Part shown: positions 1 through 41,633 of the stretch, one piece after another
Layout: each line of letters opens with the position of its first letter
Numbering within the stretch: the first letter of the stretch is position 1
From: Escherichia phage MIZ6
DNA: 64,000 nt
Strand: one strand, 5' to 3'
Sequence record: OR192075.1
Translations under genes and position numbers: made by a program
The notes under the pieces: generated by a model
Databases searched by the model: none
Told to the model about the DNA's origin: nothing
Seen by the model: the letters and a program-made list of their open reading frames with translations, nothing else

Positions 1-1827
<1,827 letters not shown>

Positions 1828-1858: not shown

Positions 1859-3862
1859 ATGACTCTATTATCACCGGGTTTCGAAACGAAAGAAACTACT
1901 CTCTCCACTACCATTGTGCAATCTGCGACTGGTCGCGCTGCACTGGTAGGTAAATTCCAATGGGGTCCAGCTTTCCAGATTATTCAAGTAACTAATGAAG
2001 TTGAATTAGTTAATAAATTTGGTCAGCCGGATAATAACACCGCAGACTATTTCATGAGCGGGGCTAACTTCCTCCAGTATGGCAATGACCTGCGTGTTGT
2101 TCGTGTATTGAATAAAGAAAAAGCGAAAAACGCAACTGCCCTAGCTGGTAACATCGAGTTTGAAATCACAAACGAAGGTTCAAACTATGAAGTAGGCGAT
2201 ACCATCAAGATTAAACATAACCGTCAAGATATTGAAACGGCTGGTAAAGTAACTAAAGTTGATGGTGATGGTAAAGTTAAGGGTGTATTTATCCCAACTG
2301 GTAAAATTATCGCTCACGCTAAAGCAATCGGTGTATATCCAGAACTTGATGGCGGTTGGACGGCAGAGTTCACTTCTTCGTCAGGTAACGGTAGTGCGGC
2401 GCTGTCAGTAACTAAAATTGTTACTGATTCCGGTCTTCTGTTAACGGATCTGGAAACTTCCCGCGCCAATATCACAAATCAGACTTTCTTGACTAAACTC
2501 CAGAAGTATGATATGCCAGCGGTAAGCGCGATCTATGCTGGTGAGATTGGCAACTCGCTGGAAGTTGAAATTCTGGCACGTAGCGCGTTCAGTGGCGCGG
2601 TAGCACCTGAATTAACTATATATCCGTTCGGCGGAACTCGTGCCGCAGCACGCAACCTGATTCCATATGCACCGCAGAATGATAATCAATATGCATTTAT
2701 TGTTCGTCGCGATGGTGTTGTGGTAGAATCCTATGTACTGTCTACTCTGAAAGGGGATAAAGACGTATACGGCAATTCTATCTACATGGACGACTTCTTT
2801 GCTCGTGGTTCTAGCCAGTACATCTATGCAACCGCTCAAGGGTGGGTAGATGGTTTCAGTGGTATTATCTCTCTTGCTGGTGGTGTTTCTGCTAACGAAG
2901 CAACGACTGCTGGTGTTGGTGCTGATCCGTTCATCGGTGCGATGATGCAAGGTTGGGATCTGTTTGCTGAACGAGAATCTATTCATGTAAACCTGTTGAT
3001 CGCTGGTGCATGTGCTGGCGAAGGCGATGCGTTCTCTACCGTACAGAAACATGCTGTTTCCATCGGTGATGAGCGTCAGGATTGCTTAGTAATGGTTTCT
3101 CCGCCGCGTAGCACTGTTGTTAATATTCCGGTGACTACCGCAATTGATAACCTGATTGCATGGCGCGAAGGTTCAGGAAACTATAATGAAAACAACATGA
3201 ACATTAATACCACTTACGCGGTTATTGATGGTAACTACAAATATCAGTATGACAAATACAACGACGTAAACCGTTGGGTTCCGTTGGCTGCTGATATTGC
3301 TGGTTTGTGCGCTCGCACTGATGCTGTATCCCAGCCGTGGATGAGTCCGGCAGGTTATAACCGTGGTCAGATCATGAACGTGGTTAAACTGGCAATTGAG
3401 CCTCGCAAGGCGCACCGCGATCGTCTGTACCAGGCCGCAATTAACCCGGTAATCGGTGCTGGTGGTGAAGGGTTTATCCTGATGGGTGATAAAACCGCTA
3501 CGACTGTTCCTAGCCCGTTTGACCGCATTAACGTTCGTCGTCTGTTTAACATGCTGAAAAAGAATATCGGCGATTCAAGCAAATACAAACTGTTTGAAAA
3601 CAACGATAACTTTACTCGCGCTTCCTTCCGTATGGAGGTTTCGCAATATCTCAGCACGATTCGCTCTCTGGGTGGCATTTATGACTTCCGAGTACAATGC
3701 GACACCACGAATAACACGCCGGATGTAATTGATCGTAATGAATTTGTTGCTAGTATGTTCATCAAACCAGCAAAATCGATCAACTATATCATGCTCAATT
3801 TCACTGCTGTTGCAACTGGTGCTGATTTTGACGAAATTATCGGTCCAGCTAACCAGGCATAA
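1859..3862 (+). CDS. 18: Tail sheath protein gp18
   Basis: 667-aa ORF; N-terminus MTLLSPGFETKE and long conserved blocks match T4 gp18. Confidence 0.95.
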   Translation: MTLLSPGFETKETTLSTTIVQSATGRAALVGKFQWGPAFQIIQVTNEVELVNKFGQPDNNTADYFMSGANFLQYGNDLRVVRVLNKEKAKNATALAGNIEFEITNEGSNYEVGDTIKIKHNRQDIETAGKVTKVDGDGKVKGVFIPTGKIIAHAKAIGVYPELDGGWTAEFTSSSGNGSAALSVTKIVTDSGLLLTDLETSRANITNQTFLTKLQKYDMPAVSAIYAGEIGNSLEVEILARSAFSGAVAPELTIYPFGGTRAAARNLIPYAPQNDNQYAFIVRRDGVVVESYVLSTLKGDKDVYGNSIYMDDFFARGSSQYIYATAQGWVDGFSGIISLAGGVSANEATTAGVGADPFIGAMMQGWDLFAERESIHVNLLIAGACAGEGDAFSTVQKHAVSIGDERQDCLVMVSPPRSTVVNIPVTTAIDNLIAWREGSGNYNENNMNINTTYAVIDGNYKYQYDKYNDVNRWVPLAADIAGLCARTDAVSQPWMSPAGYNRGQIMNVVKLAIEPRKAHRDRLYQAAINPVIGAGGEGFILMGDKTATTVPSPFDRINVRRLFNMLKKNIGDSSKYKLFENNDNFTRASFRMEVSQYLSTIRSLGGIYDFRVQCDTTNNTPDVIDRNEFVASMFIKPAKSINYIMLNFTAVATGADFDEIIGPANQA

Positions 3863-4488: not shown

Positions 4489-6054
4489 ATGTTTAGTAGA
4501 TTAAAAATGCTTGCGCGTTGGGCTGATTTTGACAACGACAAATACGAAGAACAAATTAAAGATAAAGCAGAGTCTATCGCCGCACCTAAAAACAATGATG
4601 GTGCTACGGAAGTAGAAATTAATGATAATTTACCTGCTAGCGCGTGGAACTCTCTTACCCAGCAATTTTACAGCACCGACCAGAAAATCAGCACAACTAA
4701 GCAATTAGTTAACACATATCGCGGTTTGATGAATAACCATGAAGTCGAAAACGCTGTACAAAATATCGTTAACGATGCGATTGTATTTGAAGAAGGTCAT
4801 GAAGTTGTTTCATTAAATCTTGAGGCGACTGGCTTTAGTGAATCTGTAAAAGAGCGCATTCATGAAGAATTTAAAGATCTTTTAAACACTATCCAGTTTG
4901 ATAGGCGCGGTCAGGATATGTTCCGTCGCTGGTATGTCGATTCGCGTATTTTCTTCCATAAAATCATCGGCAAAAATCCAAAAGATGGTATCGTAGAATT
5001 ACGCCAGCTTGACCCACGTAATCTTGAATACGTTCGAGAGATCATTACAGAAGACACACCGGAAGGTAAAATTTATAAAGCAACGAAAGAATATTTCATT
5101 TACACTGTAGGCAATAGCTCTTATTGCGCAGGTGGTCAAGTATTCTCTCCTAATAGTCGCGTTAAAATCCCGCGTAGTGCTATTACATACGCTCACAGCG
5201 GCTTGATGGATTGCGATGATAAATATATCATTGGTTATTTGCATCGGGCTGTTAAGCCAGCAAACCAGCTTAAATTGTTGGAAGACGCAATGGTCGTTTA
5301 TCGTATCACGCGTGCACCGGAACGCCGAGTGTTCTTTATTGATACCGGAAACATGAACAACCGCAAGGCTGCACAGCACATGAACTCAGTGGCACAGTCT
5401 TTTAAAAACCGCGTTGTTTATGATGCATCGACTGGTAAACTTAAAAACCAGCAAGCAAATCTATCAATGACAGAGGACTACTGGTTACAGCGTCGAGATG
5501 GTAAAGCAATCACCGACGTTACTACTTTACCCGGTGCATCCGGTATGAGTGATATCGATGATATTCGCTACTTTAACCGTAAATTGTATGAAGCGTTGCG
5601 TGTACCATTGTCACGCAGTAATCTCTCCGATGCTAATATGGTGATCGGTGGTGACGGTTCAGAAATTACTCGCGATGAGTTGGAATTTTCGAAATTCATT
5701 AGAACTCTGCAATCACAGTTTTCGGAAGTATTGCGCGATCCTCTGAAATATAATCTGATTCTCAAAAATGTAATTACGGAAGACGATTGGGATCGTGAAA
5801 TAAATAATATCAAGGTGGTTTTCCATCGGGACTCTTATTATACAGAAGTTAAAGACGCGGAAATTTTAGAACGTCGAATCGGTCTAATCGAACGTATTAC
5901 ACCTTACATTGGTAAATATTTCTCTAACCAGACAGTGATGCGTGACATTCTGAAATATACCGATGACCAGATGGACACCGAGAAGAAACAGATCGAAGAA
6001 GAAGCGAACGATCCGCGCTTTAAACAAACTCCCGATGAAATAGAGGATTTTTAA
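4489..6054 (+). CDS. 20: Portal vertex protein gp20
   Basis: 521-aa ORF; blocks such as IGYLHRAVKPANQLKLLEDA and TEDYWLQRRDGKA match T4 gp20. Confidence 0.95.
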   Translation: MFSRLKMLARWADFDNDKYEEQIKDKAESIAAPKNNDGATEVEINDNLPASAWNSLTQQFYSTDQKISTTKQLVNTYRGLMNNHEVENAVQNIVNDAIVFEEGHEVVSLNLEATGFSESVKERIHEEFKDLLNTIQFDRRGQDMFRRWYVDSRIFFHKIIGKNPKDGIVELRQLDPRNLEYVREIITEDTPEGKIYKATKEYFIYTVGNSSYCAGGQVFSPNSRVKIPRSAITYAHSGLMDCDDKYIIGYLHRAVKPANQLKLLEDAMVVYRITRAPERRVFFIDTGNMNNRKAAQHMNSVAQSFKNRVVYDASTGKLKNQQANLSMTEDYWLQRRDGKAITDVTTLPGASGMSDIDDIRYFNRKLYEALRVPLSRSNLSDANMVIGGDGSEITRDELEFSKFIRTLQSQFSEVLRDPLKYNLILKNVITEDDWDREINNIKVVFHRDSYYTEVKDAEILERRIGLIERITPYIGKYFSNQTVMRDILKYTDDQMDTEKKQIEEEANDPRFKQTPDEIEDF

Positions 6055-36523: not shown

Positions 36524-36691
36524 TTATTTGTTAATTTCTGGTGCGTTGCTCGGATAGTAACCTTCTTTAACACCAAGATATTTTGCAACCATTCCGGTGA
36601 TCTTCTGTGCTACTACGATATCGAATTTCAGGTAGTCTTCACCGTGGTTTGCTACAATGTATGCTTCGCATTCTGCTTTAGTCTGGAACAT
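36524..36691 (-). CDS. Hypothetical small protein (55 aa), paralog of 32206..32373
   Basis: 3' 72 nt identical to 32206..32277. Confidence 0.5.
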   Translation of the reverse strand: MFQTKAECEAYIVANHGEDYLKFDIVVAQKITGMVAKYLGVKEGYYPSNAPEINK

Positions 36692-36723: not shown

Positions 36724-36752
36724 ATTATAGGGGATCACCGATCCCCTGTCAA
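36724..36752 (-). promoter_or_regulatory. Early promoter cassette (TTGACA-17-TATAAT), palindromic GATC spacer
   Basis: Spacer GGGGATCACCGATCCCC. Confidence 0.6.
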
Positions 36753-36757
36753 CAACT

Positions 36758-37051
36758 TTATAATGCTTTATATGCGTATTTCATAAATTTGTCTGCCACT
36801 TCATTGGCATGTTCAGATTCTACGCCTGATTCGAGAACAATAGCTAGGTCGGTTTCGTCATTCCCGCCGTACCAATGATTTGATGTTCGATTTTTTTCAA
36901 TTGGAAATTGGTCACTTTTATCTGTGCGACAAAATACATCTAAATGCTCGTCGATGTAAAAGATCCAATCTTCATAAAGAATAACGGTATTAGCCAGATT
37001 TTTATTGCCTTCAACGAAAGGTTCGGCTACAAACAAATTAGTATGTTCCAT
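36758..37051 (-). CDS. HxHW-motif family, member 5 (divergent)
   Basis: From ATG 37051; ILYEDWIFYIDEHLDV ... SNHWYGG ... LAIVLESG. Confidence 0.4.
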   Translation of the reverse strand: MEHTNLFVAEPFVEGNKNLANTVILYEDWIFYIDEHLDVFCRTDKSDQFPIEKNRTSNHWYGGNDETDLAIVLESGVESEHANEVADKFMKYAYKAL

Positions 37052-37849: not shown

Positions 37850-37878
37850 AGTATAGGGGATCGGTGATCCCCTGTCAA
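37850..37878 (-). promoter_or_regulatory. Early promoter cassette (TTGACA-17-TATACT), palindromic GATC spacer
   Basis: Spacer GGGGATCACCGATCCCC on minus strand. Confidence 0.55.
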
Positions 37879-37886
37879 CAACTTTT

Positions 37887-38198
37887 TTAAAGTTTTTCCA
37901 TGATAACGGTCATAATTACATCTTCTGCGCGAGCGGTCAGATTATCAGCGTCAGCATGTGGGCGGCTGGTTGTTACAGAGATAACACCGTTGCGCACTGG
38001 TTTGATGTTGATATCAAGATGATCCGCGAAACGTTCGCCAGTTACAGAATGAATTTTGGTGTTAAATTCTTTTGCCAGTGCCTTGCGAACTTCACGAATC
38101 AGGGTAGCGTTTTTCAGTTGGTTCTCCGCGCTCATGGTCTTCTGGGTGTTCATGGTTCCGTCGAAGTCAATCATTGGCAGCGTTACGATGTATTTCAT
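37887..38198 (-). CDS. Hypothetical early protein (103 aa)
   Basis: ATG 38198 preceded by GGAGAATCAAAA. Confidence 0.5.
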   Translation of the reverse strand: MKYIVTLPMIDFDGTMNTQKTMSAENQLKNATLIREVRKALAKEFNTKIHSVTGERFADHLDINIKPVRNGVISVTTSRPHADADNLTARAEDVIMTVIMEKL

Positions 38199-38243: not shown

Positions 38244-38272
38244 AGTATAGGGGATCACCGATCCCCTGTCAA
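38244..38272 (-). promoter_or_regulatory. Early promoter cassette (TTGACA-17-TATACT), palindromic GATC spacer
   Basis: Spacer GGGGATCGGTGATCCCC. Confidence 0.55.
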
Positions 38273-38284
38273 CAACTTTTTGAA

Positions 38285-38761
38285 TTATTTTTCTTGATGC
38301 TCGCGATCGTACTTTTCGAAATAAAATTCTACTGGCTGGTCGTGGATTGACAGCAAGCCAAAGCGTTTAGCCGCTCGCAATCCCATATTGCGCTGAATGT
38401 ACTTCTGGAAGTTCTCGCGTATACACTTACGCCAGTATTCTAAGCCCATACAGCTTTTATAAAGATTGCATTGCACACACGCCGGATTCATGTTATAAAG
38501 TATATCATGCTCCGGTTTATGCATTCCTACAACCTTATATTTCCATGATCCATCATCATTACGGGCAATTCGTCCATTTTCATCATAGACTACCTTTGAG
38601 CGTCGCAATACTGGTTTGATGTGGTCTGCGTGCCAGCGATCCCCTAGTTCCTCGCCACAATAGGCACAACGTCCACCATATTTCATTTTCAGGATCTGGC
38701 GTTGCTCTTTCTTTGACAATTTTTTAGGTTTAGGGGCTTTCGCCCCTTCATTATCACACAT
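38285..38761 (-). CDS. HNH endonuclease (free-standing, homing-endonuclease-like)
   Basis: CAYCG ... HADHIKP ... N ... CVQCN ... K motif; overlaps ligase stop by 8 nt. Confidence 0.7.
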   Translation of the reverse strand: MCDNEGAKAPKPKKLSKKEQRQILKMKYGGRCAYCGEELGDRWHADHIKPVLRRSKVVYDENGRIARNDDGSWKYKVVGMHKPEHDILYNMNPACVQCNLYKSCMGLEYWRKCIRENFQKYIQRNMGLRAAKRFGLLSIHDQPVEFYFEKYDREHQEK

Positions 38762-40250
38762 CGAATACCTCTTTTACTGTATTTGCAGTGGTCTTGTCGT
38801 AGCGAATACGTTTGATGATTGGGAGAAATAAAGAGAACTCCGGTTCATCTTCTTTACGTGATTTGCTGCGGATATACCCGTTGCATGTCATCTCAATAAC
38901 TTTTCCAATCAGGTTATGACGGTCAGCCCATAACATTTCTCGGTCGAGTTCATTTCGACGATCGAACGGAATTACACGTTCAGTACCATCATCACCTTTT
39001 TCGGTTGTAGTGTCGGTTAATCCCGATCCGGTGTTAGTCATCATTCGTCCGCACGCACTACGGACAGTAAAACCGCCTACCTTATTGGGGTCTTTACTAT
39101 GCGGATATACATCAACAATTTCCGCGTCGAAGTCAATCACTTCTTTAAATTTAACCTGATCTTTACTACGGCGATCTTCAAATACACCATGTAAATTTTT
39201 AAGGATAATACCTTCTAAGCCCATGTTGACATAACGATGATATACTTCGCGAGCTTCATCGATATTGTTAACTACAGTGTTTTCGATGATCTGAACACGA
39301 GGATCGTTAAGTTCTTCAACAATCTGTTTTAGTTCTTCGAATCGATCTTTATATTGCTTCGTTGCTTTCTCGTTTCCGTAATACACATCACGGTCGATAA
39401 CATCCCAGACAGTGTAAACAATACATTGGGCTTCTTCTTTTGGAATAGTTCCTTTAAGTGATTTGTTGAGGATACCATTTCCGGTCTGACGATCTGCAAC
39501 AACGGATTCTTTCACTGCTTCCGCTACTGGCGTTAATGGCATTTCCTCTTCTTCAAATATCCATGACAGAGTACCATCATAAACGCTTTCAACGAAGTTC
39601 TGCGCTGGTGTTTGCGAAAGGGTAGGCATATATACCAATTCGCCATCTAGAACAATTCCACGGCCTCGTAGACGCTCTAAAACCGCAAACAAATCATCAA
39701 GCCCTTGATAGGTATTACCTGAGCGGGTATAGATTGCTAATGTTTCCCCGTCAATATCAGCCATACCACGAGCGCCATCGCTTTTAAGTTGTGCATACGC
39801 CGGATACTTGATATTAGCAATAGTCTTATCAGAACATGACGATGCAAGGTGGCACGGCTGCTGGGGGATCAGTTTCTTCCATACCTTGTTTGCAGTAGTA
39901 GCGGAACAACCACATTCCAGATCACGATTCAGGACCATCATTGCAACTTTAGCATCATCTTCTGACAAGCAAGTCAGAGTATCGGTAACTAGCTGTAATG
40001 CTGCATTACCAGTTACTTGACGCGTGGCAAGTTTATTTTTAAAGACCTGTAATGCACCGGATAAAGACAATACAGACGAATAGCGAGACGGTTTATCGTA
40101 TTTCTTTACGCCAAACGTAACCTGTTTGCAATATGCCAGATAAAAGCATTCTTTCAGCGTTTCATTGCTCGCGGATTCTTTCAGAATCTTTTCTTTCAGC
40201 GATGTTTTGTCTGTTGCTGCAAGCTGATTAATGATATTAAGAATTGACAT
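38754..40250 (-). CDS. 30: ATP-dependent DNA ligase gp30
   Basis: Start moved to ATG 40250 (SD GAGGTG); catalytic lysine motif KSDGAR; resembles T4 DNA ligase along whole length. Confidence 0.95.
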   Translation of the reverse strand: MSILNIINQLAATDKTSLKEKILKESASNETLKECFYLAYCKQVTFGVKKYDKPSRYSSVLSLSGALQVFKNKLATRQVTGNAALQLVTDTLTCLSEDDAKVAMMVLNRDLECGCSATTANKVWKKLIPQQPCHLASSCSDKTIANIKYPAYAQLKSDGARGMADIDGETLAIYTRSGNTYQGLDDLFAVLERLRGRGIVLDGELVYMPTLSQTPAQNFVESVYDGTLSWIFEEEEMPLTPVAEAVKESVVADRQTGNGILNKSLKGTIPKEEAQCIVYTVWDVIDRDVYYGNEKATKQYKDRFEELKQIVEELNDPRVQIIENTVVNNIDEAREVYHRYVNMGLEGIILKNLHGVFEDRRSKDQVKFKEVIDFDAEIVDVYPHSKDPNKVGGFTVRSACGRMMTNTGSGLTDTTTEKGDDGTERVIPFDRRNELDREMLWADRHNLIGKVIEMTCNGYIRSKSRKEDEPEFSLFLPIIKRIRYDKTTANTVKEVFDV

Positions 40251-40716
40251 TTTCACCTCGTTTTGTTAAACGTTCACGAATATCATTGAGGATACTACAA
40301 AATTCCGATTCAGTCAATATAGTCTTTAACGGATCAGTTCCACCTATGCTATGACGTAATTTCTTATTTCCGGTAGAGAGTAATGCTTTACAAAATTCTG
40401 GGTTATTCCGTGCCATCGTAACAAATGCCAGATGTACCAGTCTGTAATAATGCTCACTCATTCGATGAATCGGGCGACCCTGAAAATATAACATGTGATT
40501 CTCAATCTTTTCAGTTCTTCCGGTTCTTTTTGCTTTGCCACCGTGCATCAAAAAGATTTCTCTTTGTCTCTGAGGGTTCTTAAATCTTAGCCCCTGTAAA
40601 AATCCTTCTGTGCTGTTAATATCGCAACCAAATAGACGGAATGGTCTTTTATTGAAATTACTCAATTCACCCGATGGATAAGGTCCACCCGCATAGATAT
40701 CAATTTCAGAAGTCAT
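40237..40716 (-). CDS. NADAR-like (YbiA/DUF1768-like) domain protein
   Basis: 159 aa; IDIYAGGPYPSGELSNF ... FRLFG ... STEGFLQGLRF resembles NADAR N-terminal signature. Confidence 0.5.
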   Translation of the reverse strand: MTSEIDIYAGGPYPSGELSNFNKRPFRLFGCDINSTEGFLQGLRFKNPQRQREIFLMHGGKAKRTGRTEKIENHMLYFQGRPIHRMSEHYYRLVHLAFVTMARNNPEFCKALLSTGNKKLRHSIGGTDPLKTILTESEFCSILNDIRERLTKRGENVNS

Positions 40717-40953: not shown

Positions 40954-41277
40954 TTAACCGTAAACTACCACAATATTCTGTTTGTGCGTTACAGTCCATT
41001 TCAGGTCGATCTCTTCTTCCTTCTTAACGCCGTTAATAACGTCTGGATGAGGAACTTTATTCATCTTGCCATGTGGCAGTAAAACAGTTTTACCCAGCAA
41101 TTCTTTATCTACCGTTTCACCGATATCAATAATCTTACCTACCAGCGGAATCTCGCCCATAGTGCGCTTTTGCTCAATAATGATCCCCATAGAGCTTTTT
41201 ACTTCTGTCCCTGCGCTTTCTGCTTTAGCTTCAATAATCACATAGTCACCAAGTGCTTTAGGAGTTTTAACGGTCAT
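40954..41277 (-). CDS. 31: Co-chaperonin gp31 (GroES-like)
   Basis: 107 aa; GDYVII ... VPHP pattern and position as T4 gp31. Confidence 0.65.
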   Translation of the reverse strand: MTVKTPKALGDYVIIEAKAESAGTEVKSSMGIIIEQKRTMGEIPLVGKIIDIGETVDKELLGKTVLLPHGKMNKVPHPDVINGVKKEEEIDLKWTVTHKQNIVVVYG

Positions 41278-41318
41278 AATTTTATTACCTCTTCAAATCA
41301 ATACAGTTTAATGATGAA

Positions 41319-41633
41319 TTATTTATAAATTTCGACGATCTGCGCTGGAGTCAGCCCGTCTACATTAATCAGACTATCAAGCCCAAAACTACGGAAACCT
41401 TCAACTGCAATTTCATATACTGGCAAAGATGTTTCTGATTCTTTACGCGGTTTTTCAACATTAGGAACTAACCACTTTTCGTATGTTTCGAAAGGCATCA
41501 GTGCCGGATCTCGCGTGGCGATCATCTCACGGACAGTACCATCTTTCTTAGTAAACTGCAAAGAGTGAGTACCGACCGAAAACATTTTCTTTAGTGCTTC
41601 ACGAAGTGCGATATTATCAACTTGTTCAGTCAT
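41319..41633 (-). CDS. Hypothetical protein (104 aa)
   Basis: ATG at 41633; overlaps cd stop. Confidence 0.45.
   Translation of the reverse strand: MTEQVDNIALREALKKMFSVGTHSLQFTKKDGTVREMIATRDPALMPFETYEKWLVPNVEKPRKESETSLPVYEIAVEGFRSFGLDSLINVDGLTPAQIVEIYK

Follow-up and report, generated by a model that had tools for sequence, protein, structure and literature searches.

The small HNH gene directly behind the DNA ligase gene (gene 30) of Escherichia phage MIZ6 is, in our preferred reading, a resident and functional nuclease gene that is maintained by selection and is not currently mobile; we hold this reading at a probability of about 0.6. The gene closes the pseT-cd-31-30.3-30 block, which is conserved in RB49-like T4-type phages. 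The analysis was carried out on a stretch of 64,000 nucleotides from record OR192075.1, called the window throughout. Judged by where the sequences of relatives part, the mobile DNA at this locus consists of small ORFs that begin right past the HNH stop codon and are flanked by PeSL elements, i.e. early promoters with an embedded stem-loop. By sequence and position the HNH gene is RB49ORF212c of RB49 and ORF212 of phi1 (NP_891783.1, YP_001469556.1) and thus already known and annotated. It is 100% identical to the 'HNH endonuclease' CDS of Escherichia phage MIZ2, and the protein is 97-98% identical to those of RB49 and phi1. The sole new element here is that the distribution of the gene among the genomes compared is at odds with the label 'putative mobile element / homing endonuclease'.

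The initial annotation had described a free-standing HNH gene next to the ligase gene, whose stop codon it overlaps by 8 nt. Both statements hold. The ORF, its Pfam and PHROG matches and the annotations of 12 relatives agree on the gene, and the overlap is seen as the shared string ATGTGTGA. The HNH start codon ATG (38761-38759) lies within the final ligase codons, the ligase stop TGA occupies 38756-38754, and a Shine-Dalgarno sequence AAAGAGG at 38774-38768 places its GAGG 6 nt 5' of the ATG. The same gene pair with the same 8-nt overlap was annotated independently in the GenBank/RefSeq entries of the 12 relatives. As the ORF matches both Pfam and PHROG profiles and has 177 homologues with E<=1e-5 in a large protein collection, these sequence comparisons show it not to be due to chance. 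ORF215, 30.3, 30 and the HNH gene form a tightly packed string, with 30.3 as an upstream member (Table 1). In RefSeq relatives gene 30 starts at an ATG two codons in, which yields 498 aa. The GC content of the HNH gene of 0.43, compared with 0.41 for the window, is uninformative as to a foreign origin.

Table 1. Features of the ligase/HNH locus in the window
Feature	Coordinates	Strand	Basis
HNH gene (HNN-variant, predicted Cys4 zinc-ribbon nuclease), 158 aa	38285..38761	(-)	ORF list, Pfam PF01844, PHROG 2118
Gene 30, ATP-dependent DNA ligase	38754..40256	(-)	Pfam DNA_ligase_A_M 2.8e-22, PHROG 114 1.4e-141, relatives' annotations
Ligase/HNH junction	38754..38774	(-)	Shine-Dalgarno, HNH ATG and ligase stop; layout permitting translational coupling
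Gene 30.3	40237..40716	(-)	Pfam Phage_30_3 6.5e-38; ORF overlaps ligase start
PeSL copy 1 (early promoter with embedded stem-loop)	38244..38272	(-)	promoter scan 11/12; repeat search
ORFan210 homologue, 103 aa, PeSL-flanked cassette gene	37887..38198	(-)	ORF list, PHROG 7474, PMC2839356
PeSL copy 2, other flank of ORFan210 cassette	37850..37878	(-)	promoter scan, repeat search
PeSL copy 3	36724..36752	(-)	promoter scan, repeat search

The promoter scan revealed no sigma-70-like promoter scoring above 9/12 upstream of the HNH gene inside the ligase gene, and a motif search found no late motif TATAAATA in front of it. A terminator-like hairpin (40942-40924, minus strand) follows gene 31 and lies upstream of the string ORF215-30.3-30-HNH. 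From this layout the HNH gene, having no recognisable promoter of its own, is most likely expressed from the ligase mRNA, and the overlap of its ATG and Shine-Dalgarno sequence with the ligase stop would allow for translational coupling.

The HNH protein matched PHROG 2118 ('HNH endonuclease') with E=8.9e-54. The Pfam HNH profile PF01844 reached 23.3 bits at a cutoff of 21.4, with an alignment limited to residues 32 to 53. The match is borderline and partial because about 29 additional residues, a beta-hairpin in the model, separate D46-H47 from N90. In an alignment of 60 family members C32, C35, D46, H47, N90, C95, C98, N99 and K102 are invariant, and a C-terminal segment is conserved as well (R129, A131, G135-L136, F146, F148, E149). 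Membership in the HNH superfamily is indicated by the profile score above threshold, the conserved D-H, Asn and metal Asn, and the two CxxC pairs. The final His of the motif is replaced by Asn (N99), which makes the protein an 'HNN' variant. Thus the 'classic HNH motif' of the initial annotation was correct as to the superfamily but slightly overstated in view of this replacement and the insertion. Residue 89 is Y in the window and D in the 12 relatives read; the column is variable across the family.

The AlphaFold2 model of the HNH protein (mean pLDDT 91) consists of strands followed by a helix (96-102) at CxxCN, and alignment and model together delimit a C-terminal domain that is helical, conserved and about 55 aa long. 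The top PDB matches in Foldseek were HNH domains (Cas9, Cap5, 4H9D) with probabilities up to 0.99 and weak E-values of at least 0.04; neither sequence nor fold searches of the PDB returned a close solved structure, only weak matches to the HNH core. PF01844 was the only domain found in the Pfam search, which yielded no NUMOD, AP2, IENR1 or HNH_3 module. Matches to PtuB, an HNH protein of a defence system/retron, and to Cas9 in PADLOC and NCBIfam were discarded, since they covered merely the generic CxxC...DH segment and stayed far below the cutoffs. Alignment and model suggest that a Cys4 zinc ribbon (C32, C35, C95, C98) probably holds the predicted beta-beta-alpha-metal site, in which D46-H47 would probably serve as the general base; N90 would be the structural Asn, and N99 would bind the metal. 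With such a site the protein most likely nicks or cuts DNA with Mg2+ or Mn2+.

Between positions 37000 and 41000 the window shows 100% identity to phage MIZ2 (OR167178.1; Krischvirus, an RB49-like T4-type coliphage), with coordinates unchanged, and 96-99% identity to the other records. In the phage collection all 58 Krischvirus genome records carried the HNH gene at the identical junction with 96-100% nucleotide identity. The aligned span equalled the query span in every record, which excludes indels. A 59th ligase-bearing record seemed to lack the gene but is just a partial RB49 entry of 1.5 kb. No empty site, i.e. a ligase gene without the HNH gene, was found in the 58 genome records or in the four diverged lineages described below.

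The ORF was intact in all 13 genomes that were read directly. Pooled Nei-Gojobori estimates over these genomes gave a dN/dS of 0.024 with a pS of 0.098 for the HNH gene, 0.030 and 0.114 for the ligase gene, and 0.059 and 0.079 for gene 30.3. Purifying selection on the HNH gene matches that on the essential ligase. The HNH gene and its flanking genes have diverged to a similar degree at synonymous sites, which gives no hint of a recent sweep or of decay. The low dN/dS alone is compatible with an active homing endonuclease, since spreading homing genes are constrained as well. Pairwise distances of the HNH gene and its neighbours correlated modestly (0.3-0.6); the value for pseT was an artefact of unaligned indels, and rampant recombination renders this correlation uninformative.

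Metagenomic contigs provided some deviating copies. In the Krischvirus-like contig L033 the codon of W110 is changed from TGG to TAG; if this stop is real, the HNH gene is dispensable under some conditions. In contig L025 the gene diverges past codon 75, at the contig end, and contig L034 has single-base deletions. The latter two oddities likely represent assembly problems and not decay.

The phage collection contains no ligase between 60% and 95% identity to that of the window; intermediate lineages were obtained by a search of the large protein collection and contig reading. Scans of IMG/VR and metagenomes with the ligase and a 70% HNH ortholog as queries yielded mostly Krischvirus and few new lineages. 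Four uncultured diverged lineages have the HNH ortholog directly 3' of the ligase gene with all catalytic and zinc residues kept. Ligase and HNH identities are 72% and 86% in L045/L046 (1-nt overlap at the junction), 71% and 69% in L023/L024 (TAATG overlap), 59% and 56% in L047 (16-nt gap), and 50% and 59% in L048/L049 (23-nt overlap as called). On these contigs and genomes the ligase-HNH pair is an old clade-wide syntenic unit, and the paired identities indicate that the HNH protein evolves no faster than the ligase. Only a few contigs cover the limits of the clade with this gene pair. In contigs L007-L010, with ligases 41-44% identical, no HNH ortholog was present within 4 kb.

Outside this clade the HNH family is met in other surroundings. 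A gp30-type ligase less than 60% identical occurs in 1,362 records of the phage collection, and the search with the HNH protein found matches in just 98 records outside Krischvirus. Among the organisms listed for these 98, small siphophage-type genomes prevail. Morganella vB_Mm5 is the sole T4-type phage among the matches listed and has its HNH homologue at another locus; Tequatrovirus (T4) was absent among the matched records listed in the tblastn search with the HNH protein. Family members are scattered in unrelated phages and prophages, where they often overlap the stop of the preceding gene. Because of this scatter a horizontal origin of the HNH gene is probable.

The sequence just downstream of the HNH gene behaves differently from the gene itself. 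The initial annotation had noted a promoter cassette upstream of the gene. The element is real and adjoins the HNH gene, but transcription reaches it only after the HNH stop: it lies downstream and serves as the promoter of the following gene. It is PeSL copy 1, TTGACA-GGGGATCGGTGATCCCC-TATACT, whose 17-nt palindromic spacer forms a hairpin with a 7-bp stem. It begins 12 nt past the HNH stop, and the gene it would drive is ORFan210. The window contains three near-identical TTGACA-palindrome-TATA strings where 0 are expected, and the copies score 11/12 and 12/12 as sigma-70 promoters. The PeSL cassettes of RB49 and phi1 have reportedly been treated by Arbiol et al. in 2010 and by Comeau et al. 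in 2014.

The 58 genomes have synteny breakpoints near 38301, 38227 and 38195, and the hyperplastic region opens with PeSL copy 1 as its first recombination breakpoint. The HNH gene has four different downstream neighbours among the 13 genomes, three of them joined through a PeSL. These three are ORFan210 (MIZ2, phi1, GEC-3S), an ORF209-like gene (SSG23, JK32, Makalu_002, UPWr_E1) and an ORF205-like gene (phiS); ORFan210 is missing at this site in the five latter phages. In phiS the PeSL behind the HNH gene leads directly to the ORF that follows copy 3 in the window (36524-36691). The fourth neighbour is ORF211 in RB49, JSE, Whisky, G2248 and GoldenSnicker. It starts 7 nt after the HNH stop; in these RB49-type genomes it displaces ORFan210 and substitutes for the last three HNH codons and the PeSL. 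The PeSL concept was described for RB49 and phi1, and in both phages mini-circles of ORFan210 formed by PeSL-to-PeSL recombination were shown experimentally (PMC2839356).

In our preferred reading the HNH gene would have arisen as a free-standing, horizontally acquired gene that was fixed long ago in the RB49-like clade. Since then it would have been inherited vertically, co-expressed with the ligase and kept by selection for a function beneficial to the phage. Candidate roles are nicking or processing of DNA that is later sealed by the ligase, or an attack on the DNA of the host or of competitors. Some points stand against a resident gene. The family is found in a variety of unrelated phage settings, as expected of a gene that was mobile in deep time; two genome papers class the gene as putatively mobile (see below); and one metagenomic contig carries the premature stop at W110. 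The HNH gene is a clean candidate for a domesticated phage nuclease, presumably beneficial and possibly linked to the ligase.

An active free-standing homing endonuclease is a possible alternative that we consider unlikely. Such an enzyme would cut the gene 30 region of co-infecting phages without the HNH gene, repair would copy the gene in, and nearby markers would be excluded; the apparent fixation would then reflect a sweep through all genomes sampled. A free-standing HNH ORF behind a conserved essential gene is indeed a typical site of a homing endonuclease, the family is scattered through unrelated phages, and the GC3 of the HNH gene is somewhat above that of the ligase gene (0.43 vs 0.36). 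In 2006 RB49ORF212c was placed among 'putative mobile DNA elements' (PMC1524935). Presumably it is also included in Table 5 of a 2010 paper, in the column 'other HNH' of RB49, phi-1 and JSE (PMC2993671); the two papers count it as a putatively mobile element or a homing gene. On the other hand, an empty site is missing in the 58 genomes and the four diverged lineages, and synonymous divergence similar to that of the flanks does not point to a recent sweep. Moreover, the gene is intact down to a ligase identity of 50%, where homing by homologous repair could not operate. The protein is without NUMOD, AP2 and HNH_3 modules, and the gene is without a recognisable promoter of its own.

A genuine homing endonuclease gene in the same gene block, 2.6 kb away, serves as an internal control: a NUMOD4+HNH_3 gene encoding 203 aa that phage phiS carries between genes 31 and 31.1. 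Copies are present in 12 of the 58 Krischvirus records, the window having none, and two of five copies examined are frameshifted. This gene is sporadic and decaying, and the ligase-linked HNH gene behaves otherwise. Other endonuclease genes of the genus are also sporadic: ORF040 occurs in RB49 only, segC in phi1 only, and HNH genes vary among Makalu phages (PMC2839356, PMC11611945). With homing endonucleases the window gene shares the stand-alone ORF; its presence is not sporadic and DNA-binding modules were not found. The initial annotation had viewed the gene as a mobile insertion point and had suggested a comparison of the gene 30 region in relatives, where conservation at this position in all of them with no sign of mobility would speak against that view. 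The comparison was run and gave exactly this result. With the gene in 58 of 58 records and in four diverged lineages, a constraint like that of the ligase, and no homing modules, the view of a mobile insertion point is not supported.

A more specific role, which we regard as doubtful, is that of a domesticated nickase coupled to the ligase and working with gp30. It might act in nick-and-seal repair or recombination, or it might make the initiating cut for PeSL-to-PeSL recombination. Two side observations touch on these versions: Gme HNH, the nearest solved relative, prefers damaged, AP-site DNA, and the region of PeSL-to-PeSL recombination begins at the HNH stop codon. If the protein were such a nickase, it would be a clade-specific component of T4-type DNA metabolism and not a selfish gene.

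We think it quite improbable that the protein is a second endonuclease VII-like junction resolvase, which would debranch DNA and leave nicks for the ligase. Its size and CxxC...DH...CxxCN layout resemble T4 gp49, and there are weak matches to PHROGs named 'endonuclease VII' (8.5e-08, 1.4e-06) and to BFVD models of like name. Yet the Pfam search gave no match to Endonuclease_7 (PF02945), hhalign against a manually entered T4 gp49 sequence reached a probability of 13% over 35 columns, and RB49 possesses a gene 49 of its own. In addition, Gme HNH reportedly does not act as a Holliday junction resolvase on its own (PMC3765158). A replacement of endonuclease VII by the HNH protein was ruled out by the gene 49 of RB49.

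Very improbable, too, is an accessory nuclease of the DNA packaging machine that stimulates cutting by the terminase, like HK97 gp74 and other terminase-linked HNH proteins. The homologue of SandraMuster and relatives (42.6% identity; among the closest outside the T4-type phages) is located at the genome end, where small ORFs and the gene of the large terminase lie just downstream of it, but most other family members are not beside terminase genes. The gene of the window resides in an early DNA-metabolism block distant from genes 16 and 17, its neighbours being 30.3, 30 and the PeSL cassettes, and profile comparison with HK97 gp74 detected no specific similarity (hhalign probability 0.5%). Furthermore, the terminase gp17 of T4-type phages has its own nuclease, and packaging is headful. 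Finally, a decaying relic of a former mobile element, now without function, could invoke the W110 stop of the one metagenomic contig, but is effectively ruled out by the selection data: the dN/dS of 0.024, invariant catalytic and zinc residues, and an ORF that is intact in 13 of 13 genomes read, free of indels in 58 of 58, and conserved to 50% ligase identity.

Compared with known systems, the HNH gene is placed like RB49ORF212c and phi1 ORF212 and overlaps gene 30 by 8 nt as they do; its sequence is essentially the same apart from Y89. With the free-standing homing endonucleases of T4-type phages (Mob, HNH type; Seg, GIY-YIG type) and the NUMOD4+HNH_3 gene it has in common a free-standing nuclease ORF between or behind conserved genes, and with the Mob type and the NUMOD4+HNH_3 gene also the HNH superfamily. 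Yet the T4-type homing genes are sporadic, often degenerate and equipped with NUMOD, AP2 or HNH_3 (PMC2839356; PMC11611945), whereas the HNH gene of the window is clade-universal, intact and restricted to a PF01844-type core. Like proteins of the HK97 gp74 type, the window protein is a small HNH protein of phage origin that has a zinc site, and several members of its family adjoin terminase genes; it differs by the lack of specific similarity, and its gene is far from the packaging genes of a headful packager.

The family profile reaches one solved structure, Gme HNH (Gmet_0936) of Geobacter (PDB 4H9D), with E=1e-4. Small and stand-alone, Gme HNH shows weak nicking that depends on Mn2+ and a preference for acid- and heat-damaged DNA (PMC3765158). 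Both proteins have a Cys4 zinc ribbon and the CxxC...DH...N...CxxCN ('HNN') layout with similar CxxC-DH and N-CxxC spacing, and C32/C35/C95/C98 of the phage protein are laid out as C38/C41/C73/C76 of 4H9D. However, identity is about 19-20% and the Foldseek E-value is weak (0.08); the phage protein adds about 29 residues between DH and N as well as the C-terminal domain (about 55 aa), for which Gme HNH has no counterpart. The PeSL of the window is like those of RB49 and phi1: a strong sigma-70-type promoter with a stem-loop, repeated, flanking ORFan210, and situated at indel breakpoints. The HNH gene differs from the genes of these cassettes in that it lies outside and forms the fixed edge against which the cassettes shuffle.

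In about half of the genus ORF211 starts 7 nt past the HNH stop, where it stands in place of the PeSL cassette, the promoter with an embedded stem-loop. The last three codons of the HNH gene are altered in these genomes (…ERENKE vs …EREHQEK). Because ORF211 both replaces the PeSL and rewrites these codons, the 3' end of the HNH gene itself contains the indel junction. The N-terminus of ORF211 is strongly hydrophobic, and a Pfam search with its 114 residues returned no match. Deletions in relatives had endpoints exactly from one PeSL copy to another; compared with the window they take out either ORFan210 or everything down to the ORF at 36524-36691. The palindromic spacer of each PeSL carries two GATC (Dam) sites, and a Dam methylase is encoded by RB49.

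Positions of cassettes and genes in the window and in related sequences
Feature	Sequence	Coordinates	Strand	Remarks
PeSL promoter/stem-loop cassettes, three near-identical copies	Window	36724-36752, 37850-37878, 38244-38272	(-)	Direct orientation
ORF211, 114 aa	L011 (RB49)	2175-2519	(-)	Also in JSE, Whisky, G2248, GoldenSnicker
HNH homologue, 48% identity	L001 (Morganella phage vB_Mm5)	3986-4414		Locus away from ligase
GIY-YIG (seg-like) ORF, weak match	L045 (uncultured relative, ligase 72% identical)	498-938		Upstream of rnlA
NUMOD4+HNH_3 homing-type endonuclease gene, 203 aa	L020 (phage phiS)	5552-6163	(-)	Between genes 31 and 31.1

Within the coding region, codon 89 (38495-38497 in the window) specifies Tyr in the window, as in MIZ2, and Asp in all 12 other Krischvirus genomes read. 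This residue adjoins the structural Asn90, and its column is variable in the wider family. Three metagenomic contigs carried irregular copies. The ortholog of a Krischvirus-like contig (L033, Logan ERR14656784, 3001-3474) is in frame and conserved apart from a TGG to TAG change at the nearly invariant W110, which reflects a natural null allele or else an error in sequencing. An ENA scaffold (L025, scaffold_8678, 5226-5724) matches the window identically up to HNH codon 75 and continues with unrelated sequence at the contig end, suggesting a chimeric assembly. Several 1-nt deletions in the HNH gene of a short contig (L034, GCA_002832725.1) suggest poor assembly.

Among the matches listed, a homologue of the HNH gene occurs in just one further T4-type phage, vB_Mm5, and its neighbours there are regB and a 171-aa ORF annotated as 'terminase large subunit', not the ligase gene. 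In unrelated phages and prophages (L036-L039, L001 and L003, L001 being vB_Mm5) members of the family very often start 1-4 nt within the stop of the preceding gene, which may encode a methylase, a 624-aa protein or a small ORF. Tight coupling to the upstream gene seems to be a habit of the HNH family and not specific to the ligase.

In the gene block of L045 pseT is apparently absent. With its GIY-YIG ORF, this lineage gives another case of endonuclease genes turning over beside a string of genes that is otherwise conserved. The NUMOD4+HNH_3 gene is missing from the window, where the matching site is the gene 31/31.1 junction near 41277-41319. The insertion is present in 12 of the 58 Krischvirus records, and the copies of G37-3 and FL20 are frameshifted by 1-nt indels. 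Sporadic and decaying, this gene is a textbook homing endonuclease.
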